DNA from: a virus
IMG/VR virus record: IMGVR_UViG_3300031344_000005
Span: 1-64,000 of that record
Reading direction: 5' to 3' (one strand)
Length of the DNA stretch: 64,000 bases
Position 1 is the stretch's first letter, and each line of letters starts with the position of its first letter. The notes beneath the pieces were generated by a model. It made no database searches. It was given only the letters and a program-made list of their open reading frames with translations, and was not told the DNA's origin. The position numbers and the translations under genes are program-made. This document shows, one piece after another, positions 11,921 to 56,056 of the stretch.

Positions 11921-12084
11921 CGAGTGGACCGGCCCGACATCATCCCATGCTGGCAGCATCGGTTAGCTGATCTTCGCCGAACCGTGCGCGATTGCCAGCA
12001 TGGTGGGCAGAAGCTACGCAACGATGAGGGGCAACTCTTCTGTGCGGATTGCGGACGCCACTTGAACGACGATGGGGGCGAGGT

Positions 12085-13227
12085 TTGAAGATCGCGATCG
12101 ACTGGGATGGCACGGTGGTCAGCCGAGACCGATCGTATGCCGATGTCACGACGCCCATGGAGTTCGTGCCTGGGGCCAAGGAAGGGCTGCTGGCGCTGAA
12201 AGCCGCTGGCCATTTGCTTCTGCTTTGGAGCGGCCGCGCGAGCCGCGCTTTGCTGGTAGACCCCGAGCTTGACCCCTTCGTGCGCGCCGGCGTCGTCGAG
12301 GTGGACCGCCGACATTGGCAAGAGTCGCGCTGGCTTCATCAGGCGCGTTATGACCAGATGATCGAGTTCGTCGAGCGTGAATTGCCCGGCGTGTTCGATG
12401 CCATCGACGACGGCCTGGCGGGTAAACCCAGCGTGGATCTCTTCATTGACGACAAGTGCATGGCGATGCGCGGCCCTGCCACGTGGGCGCGGATTGCTCG
12501 CCAGTACGGCGAAGAGCAGCCCCTGTTCGACGAGCCCGCGGCGACTGGCCTGCTGGCCCGCCCGGTCGCGAGCCTGAACTTAGTGCCTGCCGGGCCCCTG
12601 AAGGACATTCTCGACAGCGTGCGGGGCGAACTGAAGGCCGCCGGCATCGTGCACTTCGAGCCGCACTTCGCCTTGGGGGATTCGGGCTTCTGGTGTGCCG
12701 ACCGCGCCCTGACGGTCAATATCCCATGGTTTCTCGCCACCGAGGAGCTGCACCAGCTCGCCCAGGCCCGCTACCCGATGCAGTGGAGCGACGTGCTCCG
12801 GGGCGTCCGGCACGAAGTCGGGCACGCCTTGAACTACGCCTTTGAGCTGTGGAAGCGCGAGGATTGGCGGCGTACCTTCGGCGACTTCACGGCGCCCTAC
12901 CCGGATCGGCCCTGGCCTGTGGCGCCCGACAGCCCGGACTTCGTTGAGTACGTGCGGGACAGCGGGCCAGGGTACAGCCAGCGGCACCCCGATGAAGACT
13001 GGGCCGAGTCTTTCGCCTGCTGGCTGGACCAGGCGTCAGATTGGCGGCGACGCTACATGGCGGGTGCTCGTCGTAAGCTGGAATACGTGGTCATCATCGC
13101 CCGGGACGTGCTCTGCGGCTGGCCTAGCAACTACAACCTGGGGACGCCGCGGGCTTGGCGGGAAGCTTTCAGGGGGCAGACCGTCGCGCAGGCCCTGGCG
13201 ATACCAACCGCAGAAAACGGGCCTTGA
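12085..13227 (+). CDS. HAD-family phosphatase fused to putative zinc metallopeptidase
   Basis: TTG start after GAGG; IDWDGT, WSGR, GKP, FIDD HAD motifs; C-terminal HEVGH and HPDEDWAESFA. Confidence 0.75.
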   Translation: MKIAIDWDGTVVSRDRSYADVTTPMEFVPGAKEGLLALKAAGHLLLLWSGRASRALLVDPELDPFVRAGVVEVDRRHWQESRWLHQARYDQMIEFVERELPGVFDAIDDGLAGKPSVDLFIDDKCMAMRGPATWARIARQYGEEQPLFDEPAATGLLARPVASLNLVPAGPLKDILDSVRGELKAAGIVHFEPHFALGDSGFWCADRALTVNIPWFLATEELHQLAQARYPMQWSDVLRGVRHEVGHALNYAFELWKREDWRRTFGDFTAPYPDRPWPVAPDSPDFVEYVRDSGPGYSQRHPDEDWAESFACWLDQASDWRRRYMAGARRKLEYVVIIARDVLCGWPSNYNLGTPRAWREAFRGQTVAQALAIPTAENGP

Positions 13228-21434: not shown

Positions 21435-21706
21435 TGCCGGGCAACCTCAAAAACGCCTTGCGCGCAGAGCCCGCTGGCGGGACCGTCAATGTGGATCTGA
21501 CGAGAACGACGCCCAAGGCTGACCCGCGGTTTATGCCCGAGCAGGCGCCCCCGGAATCTGATTCCGCGATGGACGCTCCGGGCCTGACCGTCACTGGGAA
21601 GTCACCCAATGCTCGCATCGCACTACCGGCAAGCCAGAAGCTGCCCAATTTGCCACCGGCCAGGAACCCGAATTTGTTCGAGGCAACCCCGAGGAAGCGA
21701 ACATGA
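21431..21706 (+). CDS. Small Pro-rich protein
   Basis: GTGA coupling. Confidence 0.55.
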   Translation: MMPGNLKNALRAEPAGGTVNVDLTRTTPKADPRFMPEQAPPESDSAMDAPGLTVTGKSPNARIALPASQKLPNLPPARNPNLFEATPRKRT

Positions 21707-21912
21707 GCGAAGCTCTTTCACCAGGTCGACGGCGCGCGCTTGAGCTTGGCCGCAAGTTCGGGACGATTCGCGAAGACAAGCCTCGCACCGCCCCTGACGG
21801 TCTGACCGGCGGGCGGGGAGCCTCCGAGATGGCGAAGGCTGAGAAACCACTACTCGAAGGCGCGAGCGTGAAGCCCGCCGTCGAAAAACCGCTCCCGTTT
21901 CGACGGGGGTAA
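21703..21912 (+). CDS. Small protein with KPLPF motif
   Basis: GAGGA RBS, ATGA coupling. Confidence 0.6.
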   Translation: MSEALSPGRRRALELGRKFGTIREDKPRTAPDGLTGGRGASEMAKAEKPLLEGASVKPAVEKPLPFRRG

Positions 21913-21922
21913 GGAGAACCAG

Positions 21923-22081
21923 ATGAGCGACGAGAGCACCCCTGTCAAAGAGTACGACGCAAAGCACGGTTCCTACAAGCCCAGCGGACTGGAAGTCAAC
22001 ACGGCTTCTTCGGTGCTTCCGGCGAAAGATAAGCCGCTGCCGTTCAAGTCGACGGTTGGCAACACGAACGCCGACAAGTGA
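21923..22081 (+). CDS. 52-aa protein with KPLPF motif
   Basis: TAAGGAG RBS; MSDESTPVKEY...KDKPLPFKSTVGNTNADK. Confidence 0.65.
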   Translation: MSDESTPVKEYDAKHGSYKPSGLEVNTASSVLPAKDKPLPFKSTVGNTNADK

Positions 22082-22119
22082 TCGGCGGCATCAGTCACTG
22101 ATTTGAGGAGAGACATTCC

Positions 22120-22992: not shown

Positions 22993-23009
22993 CCGACGGA
23001 GTCAGTAGC

Positions 23010-23186
23010 GCCACATGAAACCTTTCAGCGGGACACACGCCAACCTGAGATTCACTCAGGGCGCCTCTGTCCCGCGCAACGTGGCTCGATACCTTGCGTG
23101 CCCGCCCGTTGAAGTCGTCACTCGTGACGACGGCGACGATACAGCCGGTGACCGCGACGTAAACGAGTAGCTCCGAGGAGCGAGTC
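23010..23186 (+). promoter_or_regulatory. Structured leader upstream of scaffold gene
   Basis: Nested stems GCCAC/GTGGC, GCGGGACA/TGTCCCGC, CCTGAG/CTCAGG; GTCGTCAC/GTGACGAC; GCTCC/GGAGC over the RBS. Confidence 0.55.
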
Positions 23187-24041
23187 ATGCCGAACGAAAA
23201 CCAACCCGATCCGAATCAACCGCCAGCCCCAGGAACACCGCCAGTAAGCACTCCGCCCGTCGGAGCCGCACCTCCCGCCCCCCAGGGCAAGAACGTCATG
23301 ATCCCCCAAGCCGCATTTGACAAGCGAGTCGAGCAGGCGAAGAGAAGCGGTCGAACCGCCTACCAAGCCGAACTCGACGCGGCTGCCGTGGCCAAGGGAT
23401 ACGCGAACCACACCGCACTGATGGCCCACGTCGATGGGTTGCTCACTCGACGAGCCGCCGCGCCGAAGTCACCGCAGGCCCAGCCGCAGGGCCAGGCCAG
23501 CGGATCACCTCCTCCCCCGGTCCCGCCCAAGAACCGCAATGACCGCCAGGCCATGCAGCAATTCGAGCGAGACAAGGCGAGGGCGCAGCGCGAGCGAGAA
23601 CAGTCCGAACGACGATTGGCAGACGAGCAGAAGCGACGCCGCAGGGCCGAGCGAGAACGCGATGCCATCGAAGCCCGGTCCAACCTCGAACGCATTGCCG
23701 GCCGGTGTGGCGTCAAGGACGTCGACTACGCGATCCATCTGTACACCCAGCACTGCCAAGGGAAATCCGAGGACGAGCTGAGCAAGATGGACGAAGATAA
23801 ATTCTTCAAGGAGTTGCGGCAAGGACACCCCTACATCTTTGGGGAAACGGTCGTGCCCGCGACGACCGGGACCGTGGGAGCGCCCCCCGGCTCTCATGTA
23901 CCGCCATCGGCCGCGGGAACCGCAGCCGCTGCCGGGCAGGCCGGAACCATCGACGTTACGAAGATGAACAAGGAACAGTACCGCGAGTATAGGCGGAATC
24001 GCGGCTACGACCGACCGCTCCTGACAGGCAGAGCAAGCTGA
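23187..24041 (+). CDS. Capsid scaffolding protein
   Basis: Pro-rich N-terminus, central coiled coil, HPYIF motif, immediately before capsid. Confidence 0.78.
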   Translation: MPNENQPDPNQPPAPGTPPVSTPPVGAAPPAPQGKNVMIPQAAFDKRVEQAKRSGRTAYQAELDAAAVAKGYANHTALMAHVDGLLTRRAAAPKSPQAQPQGQASGSPPPPVPPKNRNDRQAMQQFERDKARAQREREQSERRLADEQKRRRRAERERDAIEARSNLERIAGRCGVKDVDYAIHLYTQHCQGKSEDELSKMDEDKFFKELRQGHPYIFGETVVPATTGTVGAPPGSHVPPSAAGTAAAAGQAGTIDVTKMNKEQYREYRRNRGYDRPLLTGRAS

Positions 24042-24086
24042 AACTGACGGCCAACAGCCGACGAACACCAACGAAAGAGGAAATCC

Positions 24087-25502
24087 ATGGACTTCTCAGT
24101 CATCCAACAGTCGCCCCAGGTCCGAGAACTGGTGCAGCAGAACGTGCTGCAGCGGGAGTTCAAGGACGCCCTGTACCCCCGCAATCTGTTCCGCGGCGAA
24201 GCCGAGCCGGTGGAATGGCCCGCCAACATCGGCGACAGCATGGTGTTCACCGGCCGCGGCCTGATGAAGCCGTCGACCAAGCCCTTGAAGCCCGGTGACG
24301 AGCCGCGGGCGAAGAGCGTCGAGTATGAACAGTGGTCCGCCCAGCTCCATCAGTGGGTCGGCCGCGCCCCGGACATCTCGACTGTGACCGACCTCGTGTC
24401 GATCGCGCGACTGTTCGTGAGCAACGTCCAGGCCCTCGGGTTGGATGCTGGCATGTCGCTCAACCGCATCGTACGCGATCGGTTGTACAACGCCGCGCTG
24501 AGCGGCCAGACGGTCGCGACAGTGACCGCGACTTCGGGCCACACCATCACGGTGGCGCGCTTGAACGGTTTCACGACCGCGCGGCGCCCCGACCTGTCGA
24601 CTGGATCGACGGTCAAGTTCGACACCGTGTCGAGCAACAACCCGCTGATCGCCTACACCAAGCACGCCTCCGGCGCCACGCTGACCCTCACCATCACGGG
24701 CTTCACCCCGACCTACACGGGCGACGAAACCGGGCCAGGCACCCTGACGGTTGCCGAAACCTTGAGCGGGAGCAACGTCACGGCGCGGGATCCGATCTGG
24801 ACCGCTGACGCCAGCTTCATCAACCGCGCGGGCGCTGGCCTGAGCGTCGATGCCGTCACGAGCACGGGCCACGGCTTCACGTTCGACCTGTACCGCAGTT
24901 CGGTGGGCCACATGGCGGACAACAACGTGCCGAAGATGTCTGACGGCTTCTACCACGCGCACTTCAACAACTACTCCAAGGGCCAACTGTTCAGCAGCGA
25001 CGAGAGCCAGCGGCTCTTGACCAGCTTGCCGGACTACTACTGGTACAAGGAGTTCACGATCGGCGAGGTGCTGGGTGGCCTGGTGTTCGAGGACACCGAG
25101 ACCCCGCAGGCGTCGAACGTCCAAGGTGGCACCTCCAACGTGTACGACGGCTCCGACACCGGCGAAGCGTTCGGCGGCGAGATGTACAACTACACCAGCG
25201 ACCTCATCCAACGCCCGATCTTCATCGGCGCCGAAGCGGTCTACGAATACTACCGGCCCCTCGGCGGTCTCGTGACTGAGGCCGGCGTCAACGGGCAGGT
25301 GGGTGAGTTCACCGGCCTGACCAACAACGGCATCGAGGTGAATGTGGATCGCGTGCAGGTCTACCTGCGAGCGCCCGTGAACGTGACGGGCGACATCGTG
25401 ACGTCGGTGTGGAAGAGCGTGATGGATTGGCCCTGCCGAACCGACGTGCTCACCGGCGACAGCGCCAGGTTTAAGCGGTGCGTCGTGGTGGAACATATCT
25501 AG
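24087..25502 (+). CDS. Major capsid protein
   Basis: 471 aa, strong codon bias and RBS, YHAHF/IGEVLGGLVFE pattern, position after scaffold. Confidence 0.85.
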   Translation: MDFSVIQQSPQVRELVQQNVLQREFKDALYPRNLFRGEAEPVEWPANIGDSMVFTGRGLMKPSTKPLKPGDEPRAKSVEYEQWSAQLHQWVGRAPDISTVTDLVSIARLFVSNVQALGLDAGMSLNRIVRDRLYNAALSGQTVATVTATSGHTITVARLNGFTTARRPDLSTGSTVKFDTVSSNNPLIAYTKHASGATLTLTITGFTPTYTGDETGPGTLTVAETLSGSNVTARDPIWTADASFINRAGAGLSVDAVTSTGHGFTFDLYRSSVGHMADNNVPKMSDGFYHAHFNNYSKGQLFSSDESQRLLTSLPDYYWYKEFTIGEVLGGLVFEDTETPQASNVQGGTSNVYDGSDTGEAFGGEMYNYTSDLIQRPIFIGAEAVYEYYRPLGGLVTEAGVNGQVGEFTGLTNNGIEVNVDRVQVYLRAPVNVTGDIVTSVWKSVMDWPCRTDVLTGDSARFKRCVVVEHI

Positions 25503-25510
25503 CGAAACGC

Positions 25511-26030
25511 GCGTCACAGCCTGAGAAGGAAATGTGCTTTTCCCGCGACTATCCCGACACGACGAGCGCACCGGCGCCACGGGATAGTCGCGCCTCAGTT
25601 TTGCCCTTCGGGGCAATTAAAGGGCCTGGAGCTTCGGCTCGTAAACACACGCGGTCGTGTCGCTGTGTTCTGGCCCGCCGGCATGGTGGCGGCGCTTCGG
25701 TGCTTGCCCATACGAACGTGCCGGTTCATGTCCGCGCTGGTCGCCCGATTGTGACGGGATTGCGCTTGCCCGCTTTGGTCAGTGGACATTCGCGCCCATC
25801 TATGACGGCGAACTCAACCGAGCTTTGTGCTCTGGATGAGTTGTTGCGCGGCTATCGGGAGACGCCAACCCTGGCCCTTGGCCATGGAACCGCGTCGCCC
25901 TCTGGCGGCCCCACTTCTAGAGAGTGGTCGGTGGCTTCGGCCATGACTCTGGACTCGCGCTCAAGCAGATCCCATCAGCGTGGGTTAAACGCTGTCACTG
26001 CTAGTGCCTGAGTCCGGTGCCCCGCCTCTT
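25511..26030 (+). ncRNA. Candidate large structured non-coding RNA (~520 nt)
   Basis: Four C(UUCG)G-capped hairpins, 13-bp perfect stem 25544-25556/25580-25592 and many further helices; no credible ORF. Confidence 0.7.
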
Positions 26031-26051
26031 TTTGACCAACAGGAGAATCCG

Positions 26052-26441
26052 ATGAGCCTGATGAGCGACAGAGCAGCAGCGAAGCAAAAGGATGCCAAGC
26101 CGGCGTCAGTGAAAGCTCAGGAACCGCCGGCCGCTCCGGTAGTCTCTCCTCCGCCACCCGTAGATCCGGTGGCAGCCTTCGCCGTGACGGCCGAGGAGTT
26201 CTCTGCCAAGGATGCGCCCATCGAAGCGCTCGACATCGTGGTGCCTCCGCCGGAGGCGCTAGCCCCGAAGGTCGCGCTTGCTCCTACCCGTCGCGTGCGC
26301 GTGCTGGCGGACGGCAAGGTGTTGCTGGGTGCTTGCATGCACAGATTCCGCGCAGGCAACGTTCTGGACGCCAATCAGTACGATAACCACGTGTTCGGCC
26401 AACTCCTGAAGGCCCTCAAGACGGAGCCGATCGAGAACTGA
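26052..26441 (+). CDS. Hypothetical virion-associated protein
   Basis: AGGAG RBS; precedes head-tail genes. Confidence 0.65.
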   Translation: MSLMSDRAAAKQKDAKPASVKAQEPPAAPVVSPPPPVDPVAAFAVTAEEFSAKDAPIEALDIVVPPPEALAPKVALAPTRRVRVLADGKVLLGACMHRFRAGNVLDANQYDNHVFGQLLKALKTEPIEN

Positions 26442-26443
26442 CG

Positions 26444-26860
26444 ATGGCCCTCACGCTTTCAGAGAAGGCCCGTGTCCGCTACCACTTCGGCTATCCGAAT
26501 ACGTCGATGAATGCTTCTCTGTCGATTGGGATCCCGCTGGACACGCAGTTCATGTTTTTGCTGGACCGGGCGATGAACCTGATTCTGCCGGAAGCGGAAG
26601 AGACCGTGCGGATGCTGATCGGACGGCTCGACCAGACTGACGATGCGATCTTCCAATGCCAGCTCCGAATGCAGGTCAGCAAGGTCGACGGAATCGAACT
26701 GCGGGCCGACGAAATGGATGCGCTTGAAAACGCCTACTACGGGCAGGCCACGCGCCTGGCTGACATGCTGCACACGCCGCTGTACCCGTTCTCGGCTCGA
26801 TTCCAGGGCAGGGGCGGGGTGACGAGCGCGCCCCAAACCGGAATGGTCGCGAGGCACTGA
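26444..26860 (+). CDS. Head-tail adaptor/connector
   Basis: MALTLSEKARVRYHFGYP start, size and synteny. Confidence 0.65.
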   Translation: MALTLSEKARVRYHFGYPNTSMNASLSIGIPLDTQFMFLLDRAMNLILPEAEETVRMLIGRLDQTDDAIFQCQLRMQVSKVDGIELRADEMDALENAYYGQATRLADMLHTPLYPFSARFQGRGGVTSAPQTGMVARH

Positions 26861-27252
26861 TGTCAACGCCCATCATCGTCAACCACGCAGGAGTCGCGGT
26901 CGGGACCAGCTCGGGCGGCTCGTTCGGCTGCGGCCCGTTCGACACCAGCTTCAACGCGACCTATGCGGCGCAGAAGAGTGGCCAGGACGATGTGGTGAGC
27001 GCGACCTTGGGGGCCCCCCTCGTGCTGCCCCTGGAGAACGTGGCGGGTGTTCGGGTGCTCATCATCAGCGTGAGCGGGAACAGCGTGACGTTGCTACTCA
27101 CCAGCGCGTCGGGCACCTTGCAGAAGATTCCGCTCAGCAGCGGGGGGATCATGATTTTCCACCAGCCGACCCTGGGCGACGAGTTCACGGCGATTGAAAT
27201 CGTCGGCAACGGCGCCACCGTCAGCTACTTCGTCGCGGGAGACCTCGCCTGA
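26860..27252 (+). CDS. Virion structural protein (beta-rich)
   Basis: TGATG coupling; synteny. Confidence 0.55.
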   Translation: MSTPIIVNHAGVAVGTSSGGSFGCGPFDTSFNATYAAQKSGQDDVVSATLGAPLVLPLENVAGVRVLIISVSGNSVTLLLTSASGTLQKIPLSSGGIMIFHQPTLGDEFTAIEIVGNGATVSYFVAGDLA

Positions 27253-41653: not shown

Positions 41654-42762
41654 TGCCCTCTTCCTTCGTTTCGCGCCAAGACCTCTTCGCGGTTGGCCGC
41701 GCCGCCATTGTCGCCACGCCTGGAATCCGCATCAACCCAACGATGATCGATGTTCCGGGCAGCGATCTAAACCTCACGGTCGGGGTAGACGCCGTGTTGG
41801 GCGAAGAAATATCGATGCGTTCTGCCTATGCGATGCGGGGGGCGTTCGCGGAGTTAGCGCGCGGCTCGCAGCTCGACCGAGTGATCTATGACCGATCGGG
41901 CCTCCTGCGGTTCGGCGCCACGCCGGCCAGCGTAGATCTCGTGCTGAGCAGGCCAACCGCAACCGGGGGCGCCGGGACCCTTGACGCTGGCTCAGTGGTC
42001 CAAACGGCCGCTGGCACGCAGTTCGGGCTGGATTACGCGGTGGTTTTTGGCGATGCGCTTCTCACGACCACGGCGTCCGCGACATCTACAACGTCGGGCG
42101 CCGATACCAACGTGGCAGCCGGGACCGTGACAGGGTTCTCAACTCAGCCGTTCGACACGACTTTGACGGTGACCAACCCCACGAGCGCGGCCGGCGGAAC
42201 CGATGCCGAGGATGCCATTGCGTTCCTGGGGCGCTATCGCGGCTACTTCCCGACGCTCAGCAGGGGCACGCTGGGGGCCATCGAATATGGGGCCACGCAG
42301 GTGCCTGGCGTTGCCGTCGCGACCGCCACCGAGGTGGTGAACCCAGGGACGGGCTACCCTGCGGCTATCGTCCAGTTGGTGATCGGTGATGTCTCGGGAA
42401 ACGCGACCTTCGACATGGTGAAGGCCGTGGCCAATATGATGCTGACCTACCGGGCACTCGGTATCTACGTGCAGGTACTGAGCGGCGTCGTATTCCAGCA
42501 GGCCGTCGCGTGGTCGCTCGCGTTCCAAACCGGAGTCAACGAAGCGCTGGCGGTGTCGCGCGTGCGGGCCGTTACGGTGGCGTGCGCGCAATTCCTGGCG
42601 CCGGGCGCCACGCTCTACAGGTCGACTCTTATCAGCGCGGCCCGAAAAGTGCCTGGCGTCATTATCTCGGATTCGTCACTCGTCTACCCGCTCGGAGACG
42701 TCGAGCCTACGTCGGTTCAGCAAATGATCCGTGTCGCAAGCCAGGCGGTCACCTTCCAATGA
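41653..42762 (+). CDS. Baseplate J-like protein
   Basis: ARGSQLD, GGTDAE....R, RGTLGAIE...VPGV motifs. Confidence 0.88.
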   Translation: MPSSFVSRQDLFAVGRAAIVATPGIRINPTMIDVPGSDLNLTVGVDAVLGEEISMRSAYAMRGAFAELARGSQLDRVIYDRSGLLRFGATPASVDLVLSRPTATGGAGTLDAGSVVQTAAGTQFGLDYAVVFGDALLTTTASATSTTSGADTNVAAGTVTGFSTQPFDTTLTVTNPTSAAGGTDAEDAIAFLGRYRGYFPTLSRGTLGAIEYGATQVPGVAVATATEVVNPGTGYPAAIVQLVIGDVSGNATFDMVKAVANMMLTYRALGIYVQVLSGVVFQQAVAWSLAFQTGVNEALAVSRVRAVTVACAQFLAPGATLYRSTLISAARKVPGVIISDSSLVYPLGDVEPTSVQQMIRVASQAVTFQ

Positions 42763-55111: not shown

Positions 55112-55114
55112 TGC

Positions 55115-56056
55115 ATGTTGTCCATCGGCATACATGCAAGCACGTGGAAGGTAGGACGATTCGGCTATATCCTTGGAGGGTTTGCTGCATCCCCTGTCGC
55201 TACTGCGGACTGTACAACATTCTCCACACAGATCACCGCTGCCCTGGCAAGCGCGAATCTGTCGCAGAATAACTATAACGCGTGCTCTTTGAGTGACGCC
55301 GTGAGATACGGCTACGCGCTTGGAGGATACAACGCGATTTACCTCATTTCAACTGATCAAATCACTCTCTCCACACAGGTCACCGCCTTGCTCGCTACCT
55401 GCAATCTATCGCAATCCAGGTATCGCGCTGGGTCGCTAAGCGACGGATTTCAATTTGGTTATGTCTTAGGGGGGACGAATGGCGCCCCTGTCGCTACTGC
55501 CGACTGTACAACATTCTCCACGCAGGTCACCGCTGCCTTGGCAAGCGCGAATCTGTCAGAGGCTCGTTATGGTCTAAGCGGTCTGAGTGACGCCGTGAGA
55601 TACGGCTACGCGCTTGGAGGATACACCTCCACCTACGTGGCCACGGGTGGGTGTTTGACGTTCAGTACCCAATCACTAGCCGCCCTAGCAAGCGCCAACT
55701 TATCACAGGCTCGTAGGTACGCTTGCTCAATGGGCGACCCTGTAAGGTACGTTGGCTATACGATAGGCGGTTCCAATGGGAACGATCTAGCTACTGCGGA
55801 CTGTACAACATTCTCCACACAGGTCACCGCTGCCTTGACAAGCGCGAATCTGTCGCAGGCTCGTTATGGCGTTTCCGGCATGATCGACGGACTTCAATTT
55901 GGTTATGTCTTAGGTGGAGCCAATTCTGGAGGGAATCTAGCTACTGCGGACTGTACAACATTCTCCACACAGATCACCGCTGCCCTGGCAAGCGCGAATC
56001 TGTCGGCAGGGAACGCGCGAAGGTATGTGTCATCCGTGAGTGACTACAATGTTTAA
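55115..56056 (+). CDS. Kelch-like repeat beta-propeller protein
   Basis: Six ~49-aa repeats GY.LGG...ATADCTTFSTQ.TAALASANLSQAR; appears lower in GC. Confidence 0.75.
   Translation: MLSIGIHASTWKVGRFGYILGGFAASPVATADCTTFSTQITAALASANLSQNNYNACSLSDAVRYGYALGGYNAIYLISTDQITLSTQVTALLATCNLSQSRYRAGSLSDGFQFGYVLGGTNGAPVATADCTTFSTQVTAALASANLSEARYGLSGLSDAVRYGYALGGYTSTYVATGGCLTFSTQSLAALASANLSQARRYACSMGDPVRYVGYTIGGSNGNDLATADCTTFSTQVTAALTSANLSQARYGVSGMIDGLQFGYVLGGANSGGNLATADCTTFSTQITAALASANLSAGNARRYVSSVSDYNV

Follow-up and report, generated by a model that had tools for sequence, protein, structure and literature searches.

The stretch that follows the major capsid gene of an uncultured phage encodes a large, intricately folded RNA of about 490 nt that belongs to no catalogued family, and selection also keeps one reading frame across it free of stop codons. 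The window we analysed is the 64,000-nt stretch at positions 1 to 64,000 of IMG/VR record IMGVR_UViG_3300031344_000005, and the RNA lies at 25544-26034 on its + strand. In an alignment of 18 homologous sequences (A1), the 117 pairs predicted with RNAalifold are 96.7% paired, against 36.6-44.1% when partners are slid by 1-3 columns, and 73 pairs change on both sides, against 15-21 when slid. None of 500 shuffles reaches any of the five measures used. The stretch also folds better than chance: the + strand MFE is -239 kcal/mol (z = -2.73, with 1 of 100 dinucleotide shuffles doing as well), whereas two coding flanks of equal length give z = +0.11 and +0.75. Folding energy alone cannot tell the strand, because the - strand gives z = -3.38; the + strand follows from the UUCG loops and from 10 of the 117 pairs, whose commonest form is G-U.

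The earlier note's observation of a densely structured region behind the capsid gene is confirmed, and every string it named lies where it was placed. CTTCGG occurs at 25606, 25632, 25695 and 25935, four times in 549 nt where base composition predicts 0.24, and 35 times on the whole + strand of the window. The 13-bp stem is perfectly complementary, with CTGAG at 25521 and CTCAG at 25594, and the six further helix pairs of the note are present as written. All four cUUCGg hairpins covary, the domain of the 13-bp stem keeps its architecture with different stem letters, and five of the six further helices are supported by the comparative data. The sixth, ATGTCCGC/GTGGACAT (25728/25782), is not supported, since the covarying model instead pairs 25731-37 with 25846-52 and 25767-74 with 25781-88. 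The note also took the gap between the capsid stop and the next ATG to be non-coding and missed an ATG at 25532 that opens a 159-codon frame. The features are collected in the table.

Features at the capsid junction and the observations that define them (window coordinates; helix numbers are those of the covarying model).
Position	Strand	Feature	Observations
24087..25502	+	Major capsid protein gene (471 aa), directly upstream	PHROG phrog_1357 major head protein, E = 1.7e-7; tblastn gives 26-27% identity over 97-98% of the protein to annotated major capsid or coat proteins of 7 cultured phage records; GC3 0.89
25503..25543	+	Short variable leader with the restart codon ATG 25532-25534	In-frame ATG or GTG begins 16-30 nt after the capsid stop in 12 of 13 lineages; by our reading of the alignments, a Shine-Dalgarno-like motif at usable spacing in only a few lineages
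25532..26011	+	Stop-free reading frame (159 codons) laid over the RNA	Kept open but does not look like a protein gene
25544..26034	+	The structured RNA as a whole	About 21 helices; alignment, pair counts with controls, nhmmer and covariance-model searches
25544..25592	+	Domain 1: long stem (25544-56/25580-92), 5' internal loop ACACGA (25557-62), inner hairpin (25567-70/25575-78)	RNAfold gives the same architecture in 13 of 13 lineages with different stem sequences; CACG core of the loop invariant
25601..25616	+	Hairpin with cUUCGg loop (helix 2)	3 of 6 pairs change on both sides; 100% of cells paired
25622..25676	+	Three-way domain: closing helix GGGCC/GGCCC, cUUCGg hairpin 25630-39, hairpin 25645-68 with invariant loop UCGUG	Helices 3 and 4; the hairpin pairs 25630/25639 and 25631/25638 covary
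25678..25724	+	Helix CCGGCATG/CGTGCCGG carrying the cUUCGg hairpin 25688-25708 and the invariant bulge CAUACGAA	Helices 5 and 6 are 99% and 96% paired, with 4 double changes each
25731..25852	+	Central multi-branch domain closed by 25731-37/25846-52; holds helices 8-13, including AACTCA/TGAGTT	In helix 7, 6 of 7 pairs change on both sides; helices 8-13 all covary
25857..25883	+	Two short variable hairpins (helices 14, 15)	Absent in some lineages; deletions here in relatives L024 and L031
25904..26026	+	3' domain closed by the long-range helix GGCGG (25904-08)/CCGCC (26022-26); holds the cUUCGg hairpin 25931-44, GGACTC/GAGTCC and CAGCGT/ACGCTG	Helix 16: at 25906/26024 the pair is C-G in 7 sequences and U-A in 7; helices 17-21 covary; covariance model R2 was built from this domain
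26027..26034	+	Conserved U-rich tract (TCTTTTTG) directly after the closing helix; may be a termination or 3'-end signal	Conserved in all 13 lineages of alignment A4; does not fit the simple terminator scan
26052..26441	+	Next gene (129 aa, Pro/Ala-rich, unknown function)	Good Shine-Dalgarno motif AGGAG 6 nt upstream; weak relatives after the capsid gene of distant phages; no Pfam or PHROG match

The note's interpretation, a possibly undescribed late-expressed RNA, is partly supported: this is a folded RNA absent from the catalogues, while the roles the note suggested (assembly, packaging, protein sponging or transcript processing) remain proposals. Rfam 15, which includes ROOL, GOLLD, pRNA, group I and II introns, RNase P, tmRNA, 6S and Mu-gpT-DE, gives no match at gathering score in the 64-kb window. 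At E up to 10 on 25300-26300 there is only a 13-bit lncRNA hit outside the element, and at E up to 5 nine relatives give only two 21-bit miRNA hits on the domain-1 hairpin, all of which we regard as chance. ARAGORN finds no tRNA or tmRNA gene in the window, and the reverse transcriptase family PF00078 is absent from the whole 82.8-kb record, in a search whose controls were detected. Searches of the literature turned up no description of this RNA, which is not proof of absence; the supplementary csRNA models of PMC10690425 and motif list of PMC5737381 were outside the comparison and could bear on novelty.

The RNA occurs once per genome (one copy in each of 5 of 5 phage records), always after the capsid gene, in one clade of uncultured soil, peat and freshwater tailed phages. 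It is present in 33 of 33 loci with capsid identity of 58% or more and DNA beyond the capsid stop, and in 0 of 39 loci at 47% or less. An nhmmer search and two covariance models (R1 and R2, limited to about 135 positions) found no homology in the post-capsid stretches of phages at 47% or less, the models hitting nothing in 37 distant loci. A blastn search of the 549 nt against 50,697 phage records gave no match, and the nearest cultured capsid genes are only 26-27% identical and have 0-58 nt behind them, so no cultured relative or host is available. A pattern scan of genome contigs gave one hit, in a Terriglobia MAG (locus L063) that is about 42% identical to the window and a chance match, and so gives no clue to the host. 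Of 17 metagenome hits, 11 duplicated viral contigs, 2 were new members (L048 and L062) and 4 were chance matches; with L063 these make 5 chance matches at 38-44% identity, all left out of every count. Two 151-nt contigs of one freshwater metatranscriptome lie at 25625-25775 and 25754-25904, with 6 and 4 differences, but they are of low depth and may stem from DNA in the library. Contigs of this library gave no cover on the capsid gene or the next gene within 24000-27000, an absence that proves nothing and from which we draw no claim on abundance.

The open frame is conserved as a frame, but not as a protein. Upstream of the ORF ends, it has no stop columns across 11 representatives, against 15 and 20 in the other two frames, and 12 of 13 lineages are open to within 79 nt of the next gene. 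It stays open despite frame-shifting indels, with 5-31% of columns read in another phase in 14 of the 17 other rows of A1. It is not uniform: in the lineage of loci L086, L088 and L139 it stops 118 nt before the next gene, at 77% of the element, and in L036 no start codon lies near the 5' end of the RNA. A conserved protein-coding signature was one of the conditions that had been set beforehand as able to overturn the RNA reading, and none appears beyond the open frame. GC1/2/3 is.61/.65/.61, against a GC3 of.72-.89 in 8 neighbouring genes, and the codon score is -0.34, against +0.11 to +0.58. Variable fractions by codon position are.60/.72/.66, with no third-position excess. Pfam, PHROGs and PDB give no real match, with one spurious Pfam hit at E = 0.0064 among 12 translations and no PDB hit for the profile. 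The longest antisense ORF has 64 aa. A programmed frameshift or read-through extension of the capsid protein is rejected, because the offset between the capsid gene and the downstream frame is 0, 1 or 2 depending on lineage.

Among close relatives the RNA evolves much more slowly than the capsid gene at all three codon positions. Close pairs differ at 0-3 positions in about 520 nt of the RNA, but at 19-61 codons in the last 1200 nt of the capsid gene in the five pairs with many capsid changes. Many unpaired stretches are invariant across sequences that are 55-76% identical: CACG in ACACGA, GGUCGUGUCGC, CAUACGAA, CCUGG, CGUA and UGGUC. An all-against-all covariation scan returned only nested helices, with nothing robust outside them and no support for any pseudoknot or kissing pair. 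ACACGA (25557-62) is complementary to UCGUGU (25655-60), but both are nearly invariant, so covariation cannot test this pair, and a pairing of CGUA with UACG is contradicted in L090. At the 3' end, the covarying 5-bp closing helix is followed by TCTTTTT in all 13 lineages, but it encloses a branched 113-nt insert, unlike a canonical intrinsic terminator, and a scan for simple terminators finds none there.

Distant relatives carry other stretches at this junction that are not detectably homologous, and may be very diverged relatives or independent elements, but are also rich in hairpins. Six of eight of these have a restart frame that begins 8-29 nt after the capsid stop and covers 77-95% of the stretch, while two, L101 and L102, have broken frames. 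Still others have only a 31-101 nt gap.

The existence of the multi-domain RNA, its absence from Rfam, its single copy behind the capsid gene in this clade, its slow evolution and the selection for a stop-free but not amino-acid-conserving frame are established by the sequence comparisons; transcription, termination, stability, translation and function are inferred. Our preferred explanation, held tentatively, is a ribosome-traversable 3' module of the capsid message that also yields a stable RNA. We found no promoter-like site, so the RNA is probably transcribed with the capsid gene as the 3' part of its message. In this view, the last helix and the U tract would end or pause a share of transcripts, and the compact fold would block 3' exonucleases, which together would let the capsid cistron and the RNA outlast the neck genes downstream that are needed in far fewer copies. 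The element does lie between the capsid gene and small head or neck-region genes on the same strand, with copy numbers inferred from general phage biology; the gene map used is our own crude GC3-based call, not an annotation. The stop-free frame would make the bulky insertion passable: ribosomes that finish the capsid gene would restart, unwind the RNA and reach the next gene, keeping read-through transcripts translated and sparing them polarity. However, a highly structured RNA should by itself be a poor Rho substrate, which weakens the anti-polarity argument, and a stabiliser or terminator needs only a hairpin, as in relatives with short gaps, so about 21 helices and many invariant loops argue for something more specific. 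The ORF stop varies from 79 nt before the next ATG to an overlap with it, so neither a model in which the ribosome melts the terminator nor a simple attenuation model, in which a ribosome at the ORF stop masks helix 16, fits every lineage. The invariant unpaired stretches suggest a defined tertiary fold or a bound partner, and the released RNA may therefore have a further job in trans; the two roles are not exclusive.

A trans-acting accessory RNA in the manner of ROOL, GOLLD or phi29 pRNA is possible but somewhat less favoured. Such an RNA would be cut or terminated out of the late transcript and would act through its tertiary fold as a self-assembling particle, an assembly or packaging cofactor, or a decoy for a host protein such as a defence sensor; the site after the capsid gene would merely be a highly expressed insertion hot spot, and the open frame would only keep the insertion harmless to the operon. 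The invariant unpaired stretches are typical of tertiary contacts or binding sites, and the slow change of the RNA, the library contigs on it, and its accessory nature (relatives with lower capsid identity carry unrelated elements, an HNH gene or nothing at this site) fit this reading, as does the fact that large ornate phage RNAs form RNA-only assemblies (PMC12286853). On present evidence it has no partner, processing site or oligomer to its name, and the recurrence of restart frames in unrelated elements at the same site points to a role tied to translation at this junction. A translation-gated switch is a further reading, which we consider unlikely. Ribosome traffic from the capsid gene would keep the RNA unfolded, and when translation falls, late in infection or under a host defence that shuts it down, the RNA would fold and then terminate, stabilise or act in trans. 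Selection for a translatable frame without a conserved product, a start codon right after the stop of the most heavily translated gene, and the closing helix with its U tract are consistent with this, but it is purely inferential, the ORF ends differ between lineages and nothing shows two alternative folds. If true, though improbable, it would be a new kind of dual-use element, an ornate RNA that must remain translatable and reports the translational state of the cell, and since most of the other folded elements at this junction also have restart frames, the principle may be general for this phage group.

An ordinary protein-coding gene for a basic, low-complexity protein whose mRNA happens to be strongly folded is very unlikely. 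The conserved start and open frame support it, as do gene callers, which list it as a hypothetical protein (13 clusters were found), and a net charge of +6 to +20. But the other two frames give equally basic products, positions that would be four-fold degenerate are invariant, and close pairs show 0-1 synonymous changes where, by our scaling, the capsid rate predicts about 17. In L021, L031, L032, L028 and L036, 17-31% of columns are read in another phase, leaving a phase agreement with the window of only 69-88%, and compensatory stem changes swap residues, for example LPFGA to LAFGP. Least likely is a mobile, intron-like or homing element, or a chance run of hairpins. HNH endonuclease genes sit at the same site in L097 (Pfam HNH, E = 5.4e-10), and in L036 a Cys/His-rich 178-aa ORF, which looks HNH-like by eye but has no Pfam match, lies between the capsid gene and the RNA. 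However, no group I or II intron model matches, the flanks are a complete gene end and a gene start, the RNA occurs with and without the neighbouring ORF, and chance is excluded by the pairing controls.

Large structured RNA classes with strong comparative support are rare, and each has opened a line of work (RNase P, group I/II introns, OLE, GOLLD, ROOL). This one was probably missed because its stop-free frame makes gene callers label it a hypothetical protein, so that surveys mining only intergenic DNA skip it, and other large RNAs may be hidden in the same way. A conserved open frame without a conserved protein is unusual in its own right, and raises the questions of how a bulky RNA is accommodated inside a translated operon and whether translation gates its folding. 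The recurrence of folded elements and restart frames at the capsid-neck junction of related phages points to an unexplored layer of control over how much capsid is made relative to neck proteins.

The RNA resembles ROOL and GOLLD (RF03087 and RF01998; PMC12286853) in being phage-borne, several hundred nucleotides long and rich in covarying helices, with no known protein product and unknown function. It differs from them in matching no Rfam model, in its fixed place directly after the capsid gene inside the late operon and in its selected stop-free frame, and no oligomer is shown. The Mu-gpT-DE motif, said to lie downstream of Mu-type major head genes, is likewise defined by its place; it was not found in the main text of PMC5737381, and no Rfam family, this one included, matches here. 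The csRNAs of IMG/VR (PMC10690425) come from the same data source and rest on the same kind of evidence, but that survey took only MetaProdigal intergenic regions and reports structures of 29-151 nt, so a region called as a gene would have been skipped. Terminators and hairpins after highly expressed phage genes (PMC4371310) offer another comparison. T-phi lies after T7 gene 10, and CUUCGG hairpins are reported from T4 intercistronic regions (Tuerk et al. 1988). The position after the capsid cistron, the cUUCGg caps and a U tract after a closing helix are shared, but here there are about 21 helices in four domains instead of one hairpin, invariant loops, a closing helix that spans 123 nt and a negative terminator scan at the 3' end. 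Selective RNA processing and stabilisation by intercistronic stem-loops (PMC4423207, PMC5927463) likewise places a structured element between a cistron needed in many copies and cistrons needed in few. The malE-malF REP and the puf operon are examples. The present element is far larger and conserved in sequence, a frame runs through it, and the resemblance rests on position rather than on processing or half-life data. Finally, dual-function sRNAs such as SgrS/SgrT and RNAIII/hld also carry a selected open frame. So does the DRT2 ncRNA with its hidden stop-free ORF (10.64898/2026.09.22.753630). In these, as here, RNA structure and the absence of stop codons are both under selection in the same nucleotides, but this phage has no reverse transcriptase, no conserved peptide is made and the frame spans the entire 480 nt.

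The 82,815-bp IMG/VR virus record whose first 64 kb were analysed is rated as complete by CheckV and belongs to a tailed phage. The phage has no close cultured relative: its major capsid protein is 26-27% identical over 97-98% of its length to the annotated capsid or coat proteins of seven cultured phage records. The DNA runs that hold the stretch are rhizosphere runs, which are the probable source, followed by lake and peat runs.

The observation made in the earlier note, a densely structured region directly after the capsid gene, is upheld, and every motif named there lies where it was placed. Four CTTCGG occur in 549 nt, where base composition predicts 0.24. The + strand folds to -239 kcal/mol with z = -2.73, and 1 of 100 shuffles does as well, whereas two coding stretches of the same length give z = +0.11 and +0.75. 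The - strand gives z = -3.38, so folding energy alone does not assign the strand.

To collect relatives, a capsid-protein scan of IMG/VR gave 17 loci, and a DNA pattern built from two invariant stretches of the RNA gave 27 viral loci, 17 metagenome loci and one genome locus. Of the latter 18, 11 duplicated viral contigs, 2 were new members, and 5 were chance matches at 38-44% identity that we dropped. A scan with a capsid alignment gave 78 loci with 27-89% capsid identity. An nhmmer profile of the RNA hits 33 of 33 of these loci that have capsid identity of 58% or more and DNA beyond the capsid stop, and 0 of 39 at 47% or less; the six further loci end inside the capsid gene. We count 13 lineages, which are 55-76% identical to the window in the RNA. 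Covariance models of two sub-domains find exactly one copy in each of 5 of 5 phage records, and nothing in 37 distant loci or elsewhere in the window.

RNAalifold, run on 18 sequences of which 16 are distinct, predicts 117 pairs in 21 helices, and 73 of these pairs keep pairing through changes on both sides. Counted independently, 96.7% of cells form standard pairs, compared with 36.6-44.1% when the 3' partners are slid by 1-3 columns, and pairs with double changes number 73, compared with 15-21 when slid. None of 500 shuffles reaches any observed measure. Domain 1 was missed by RNAalifold because of indels, but it folds into the same architecture in 13 of 13 lineages with quite different stem letters. 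Ten pairs are predominantly G-U, which together with the UUCG loops fixes the RNA on the + strand. One helix proposed in the earlier note is not supported, since it conflicts with two covarying helices, while a long-range helix that closes the 3' domain covaries. Many unpaired stretches are invariant. ACACGA in the loop of domain 1 is complementary to the invariant hairpin loop UCGUGU, but without variation covariation has no bearing on this pair, and a scan for non-nested covariation found nothing robust.

Coordinates of the features discussed (window positions unless preceded by a locus name; L-numbers are loci of relatives)
Feature	Coordinates	Observation
Terminase large subunit gene	8503-9978	Matches PHROGs
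Portal gene	10005-11651	Matches PHROGs
392-aa protein next to the portal gene	12049-13227	N-terminal match (residues 6-159) to a PHROG annotated as phosphoheptose isomerase, phrog_1238, E = 4.1e-12
Stretches without a convincing gene on a crude GC3-based gene map	21435-22119; 22993-23186; 41654-42509; 55112-56039	685, 194, 856 and 928 nt; none matches Rfam at gathering score
Major capsid protein gene	24087-25502	Matches phrog_1357, E = 1.7e-7
Stretch skipped or replaced in a lake-water DNA contig	25479-25579	The contig joins 25478 to 25580; the 101 nt hold the leader and the 5' half of domain 1; may be a relative with a different 5' end
Open frame	ATG 25532, ends at 26011	159 codons
Domain 1	25544-25592	Long stem, 5' internal loop and inner hairpin
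Metatranscriptome contigs (two, 151 nt each)	25625-25775; 25754-25904	6 and 4 differences
Hairpin	25630-39	Covaries
Helix proposed in the earlier note	25728/25782	Not supported; conflicts with covarying helices 7 and 11
Long-range helix GGCGG/CCGCC	25904-08 / 26022-26	At one pair, C-G in 7 sequences and U-A in 7; followed in every lineage by a U-rich tract
138-aa protein two genes after the capsid gene	26444-26860	28-47% identical in 9 distant loci, with the motif ARYHLGY in most; no Pfam or PHROG match
Extra small hairpin of the L086/L088/L139 lineage	L086:4490-4520	About 29 nt, inserted between domain 1 and the first UUCG hairpin
Other post-capsid hairpin-rich stretches	L110:1665-2028	Seven CTTCGG in 364 nt
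	L118:4324-4666 (also L121, L128)	Compensatory stem changes by eye
	L095:4390-4910; L100:4435-4790; L103:4420-4866	
HNH endonuclease gene	L097:4413-5162	Pfam HNH, E = 5.4e-10
178-aa ORF between the capsid gene and the RNA	L036:9166-9702	Cys/His-rich; no Pfam match
93-aa ORF at the post-capsid site	L137:4492-4773	Cys-rich; no Pfam match

The gap after the capsid gene is not free of open reading frames. An equivalent frame of 131-174 codons follows the capsid gene in every relative, and across 11 representatives, upstream of the ORF ends, this frame has no stop column while the other two frames have 15 and 20. If stops fell alike in the three frames, the chance of this, (2/3)^35, would be about 7e-7 by our arithmetic, although the columns are not fully independent. 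The frame survives indels: in five lineages 12-31% of columns are read in a different phase from the window, yet it stays open. An ATG or GTG begins 16-30 nt after the capsid stop in 12 of 13 lineages, the exception being L036, where the 178-aa ORF is inserted. The frame ends anywhere from 79 nt before the next gene's ATG to an ATGA overlap with it, and in the L086/L088/L139 lineage a UUAG hairpin loop creates a TAG that ends it 118 nt before. Its relation to the capsid frame is 0, +1 or +2 depending on lineage, so recoding of the capsid protein is excluded.

This frame does not behave as a protein gene. Its GC1/2/3 is.61/.65/.61, while eight neighbouring genes have GC3 of.72-.89 and GC2 of.41-.52, and its codon score is -0.34, against +0.11 to +0.58. 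The fraction of variable columns is.60/.72/.66 for codon positions 1/2/3. Between close relatives the RNA differs at 0-3 positions in about 520 nt, whereas the last 1200 nt of the capsid gene differ at 19-61 codons, mostly synonymous, so even sites that would be silent are frozen. Compensatory stem changes swap residues, all three frames give basic products, and searches of Pfam, PHROGs and PDB give nothing real. Selection therefore acts on RNA sequence and pairing and, separately, on the absence of stops, and the latter only makes sense if ribosomes read the frame. On our reading of the alignments, only a few lineages have a usable Shine-Dalgarno motif before the start, whereas the next gene has one throughout. 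This fits restart by ribosomes that have just terminated on the capsid gene, which is an inference.

The gene order at this site is capsid, a variable element, a small Pro/Ala-rich protein, and then a conserved protein of 134-144 aa, which in the window is the 138-aa protein and is the best-conserved marker of this head-neck region. In this clade the variable element is the RNA. In phages with capsid identity of 38-47% it is either another hairpin-rich stretch of 340-520 nt that neither the covariance models nor nhmmer recognises (L095, L100-103, L110, L118, L121 and L128), an HNH endonuclease gene (L097), or nothing but 31-101 nt (L104, L106, L107 and L124). Six of eight such hairpin-rich stretches, as a raw count without statistical support, again have a frame that starts 8-29 nt after the capsid stop and covers 77-95% of the stretch; L101 and L102 do not.

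Evidence of expression is slight. One freshwater metatranscriptome holds two contigs that lie on the RNA, but these are of low depth and are only a weak sign that a close relative's RNA is present in an RNA library. No sigma-70-like promoter was found between 23900 and 26500, and co-transcription with the capsid gene is therefore the simplest assumption.

What the analysis firmly establishes is a new family of large structured RNA, masked by a selected open frame; how it works is inferred. The earlier note's interpretation is supported in part: its core inference of a possibly undescribed RNA holds, while the roles proposed there, in assembly, packaging, protein sponging or transcript processing, are hypothetical. 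We tentatively favour a module at the 3' end of the capsid message, which would end or pause some transcripts at the closing helix and U tract, resist exonucleases, and stay passable to restarting ribosomes so that the neck genes are still expressed. The main reason is that folded elements with restart frames, not detectably related to one another, recur at this very junction. The strongest rival, a somewhat less favoured but possible one that is not exclusive of the first reading, is a trans-acting ornate RNA, which is supported by the number of invariant loops, the extreme conservation and the accessory distribution. A translation-gated switch is unlikely, and a plain protein gene and a mobile or chance origin are more unlikely still.

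Rfam 15 gives no match at gathering scores in the whole window, and relaxed thresholds give only chance hits, both in the window and in nine relatives. ARAGORN finds no tRNA or tmRNA gene in the window, the phage has no reverse transcriptase, blastn finds nothing in 50,697 phage records, and literature searches, which did not extend to supplementary files, returned no description of this RNA. The known elements with which we compare it are T-phi, the T4 CUUCGG hairpins and Mu-gpT-DE.
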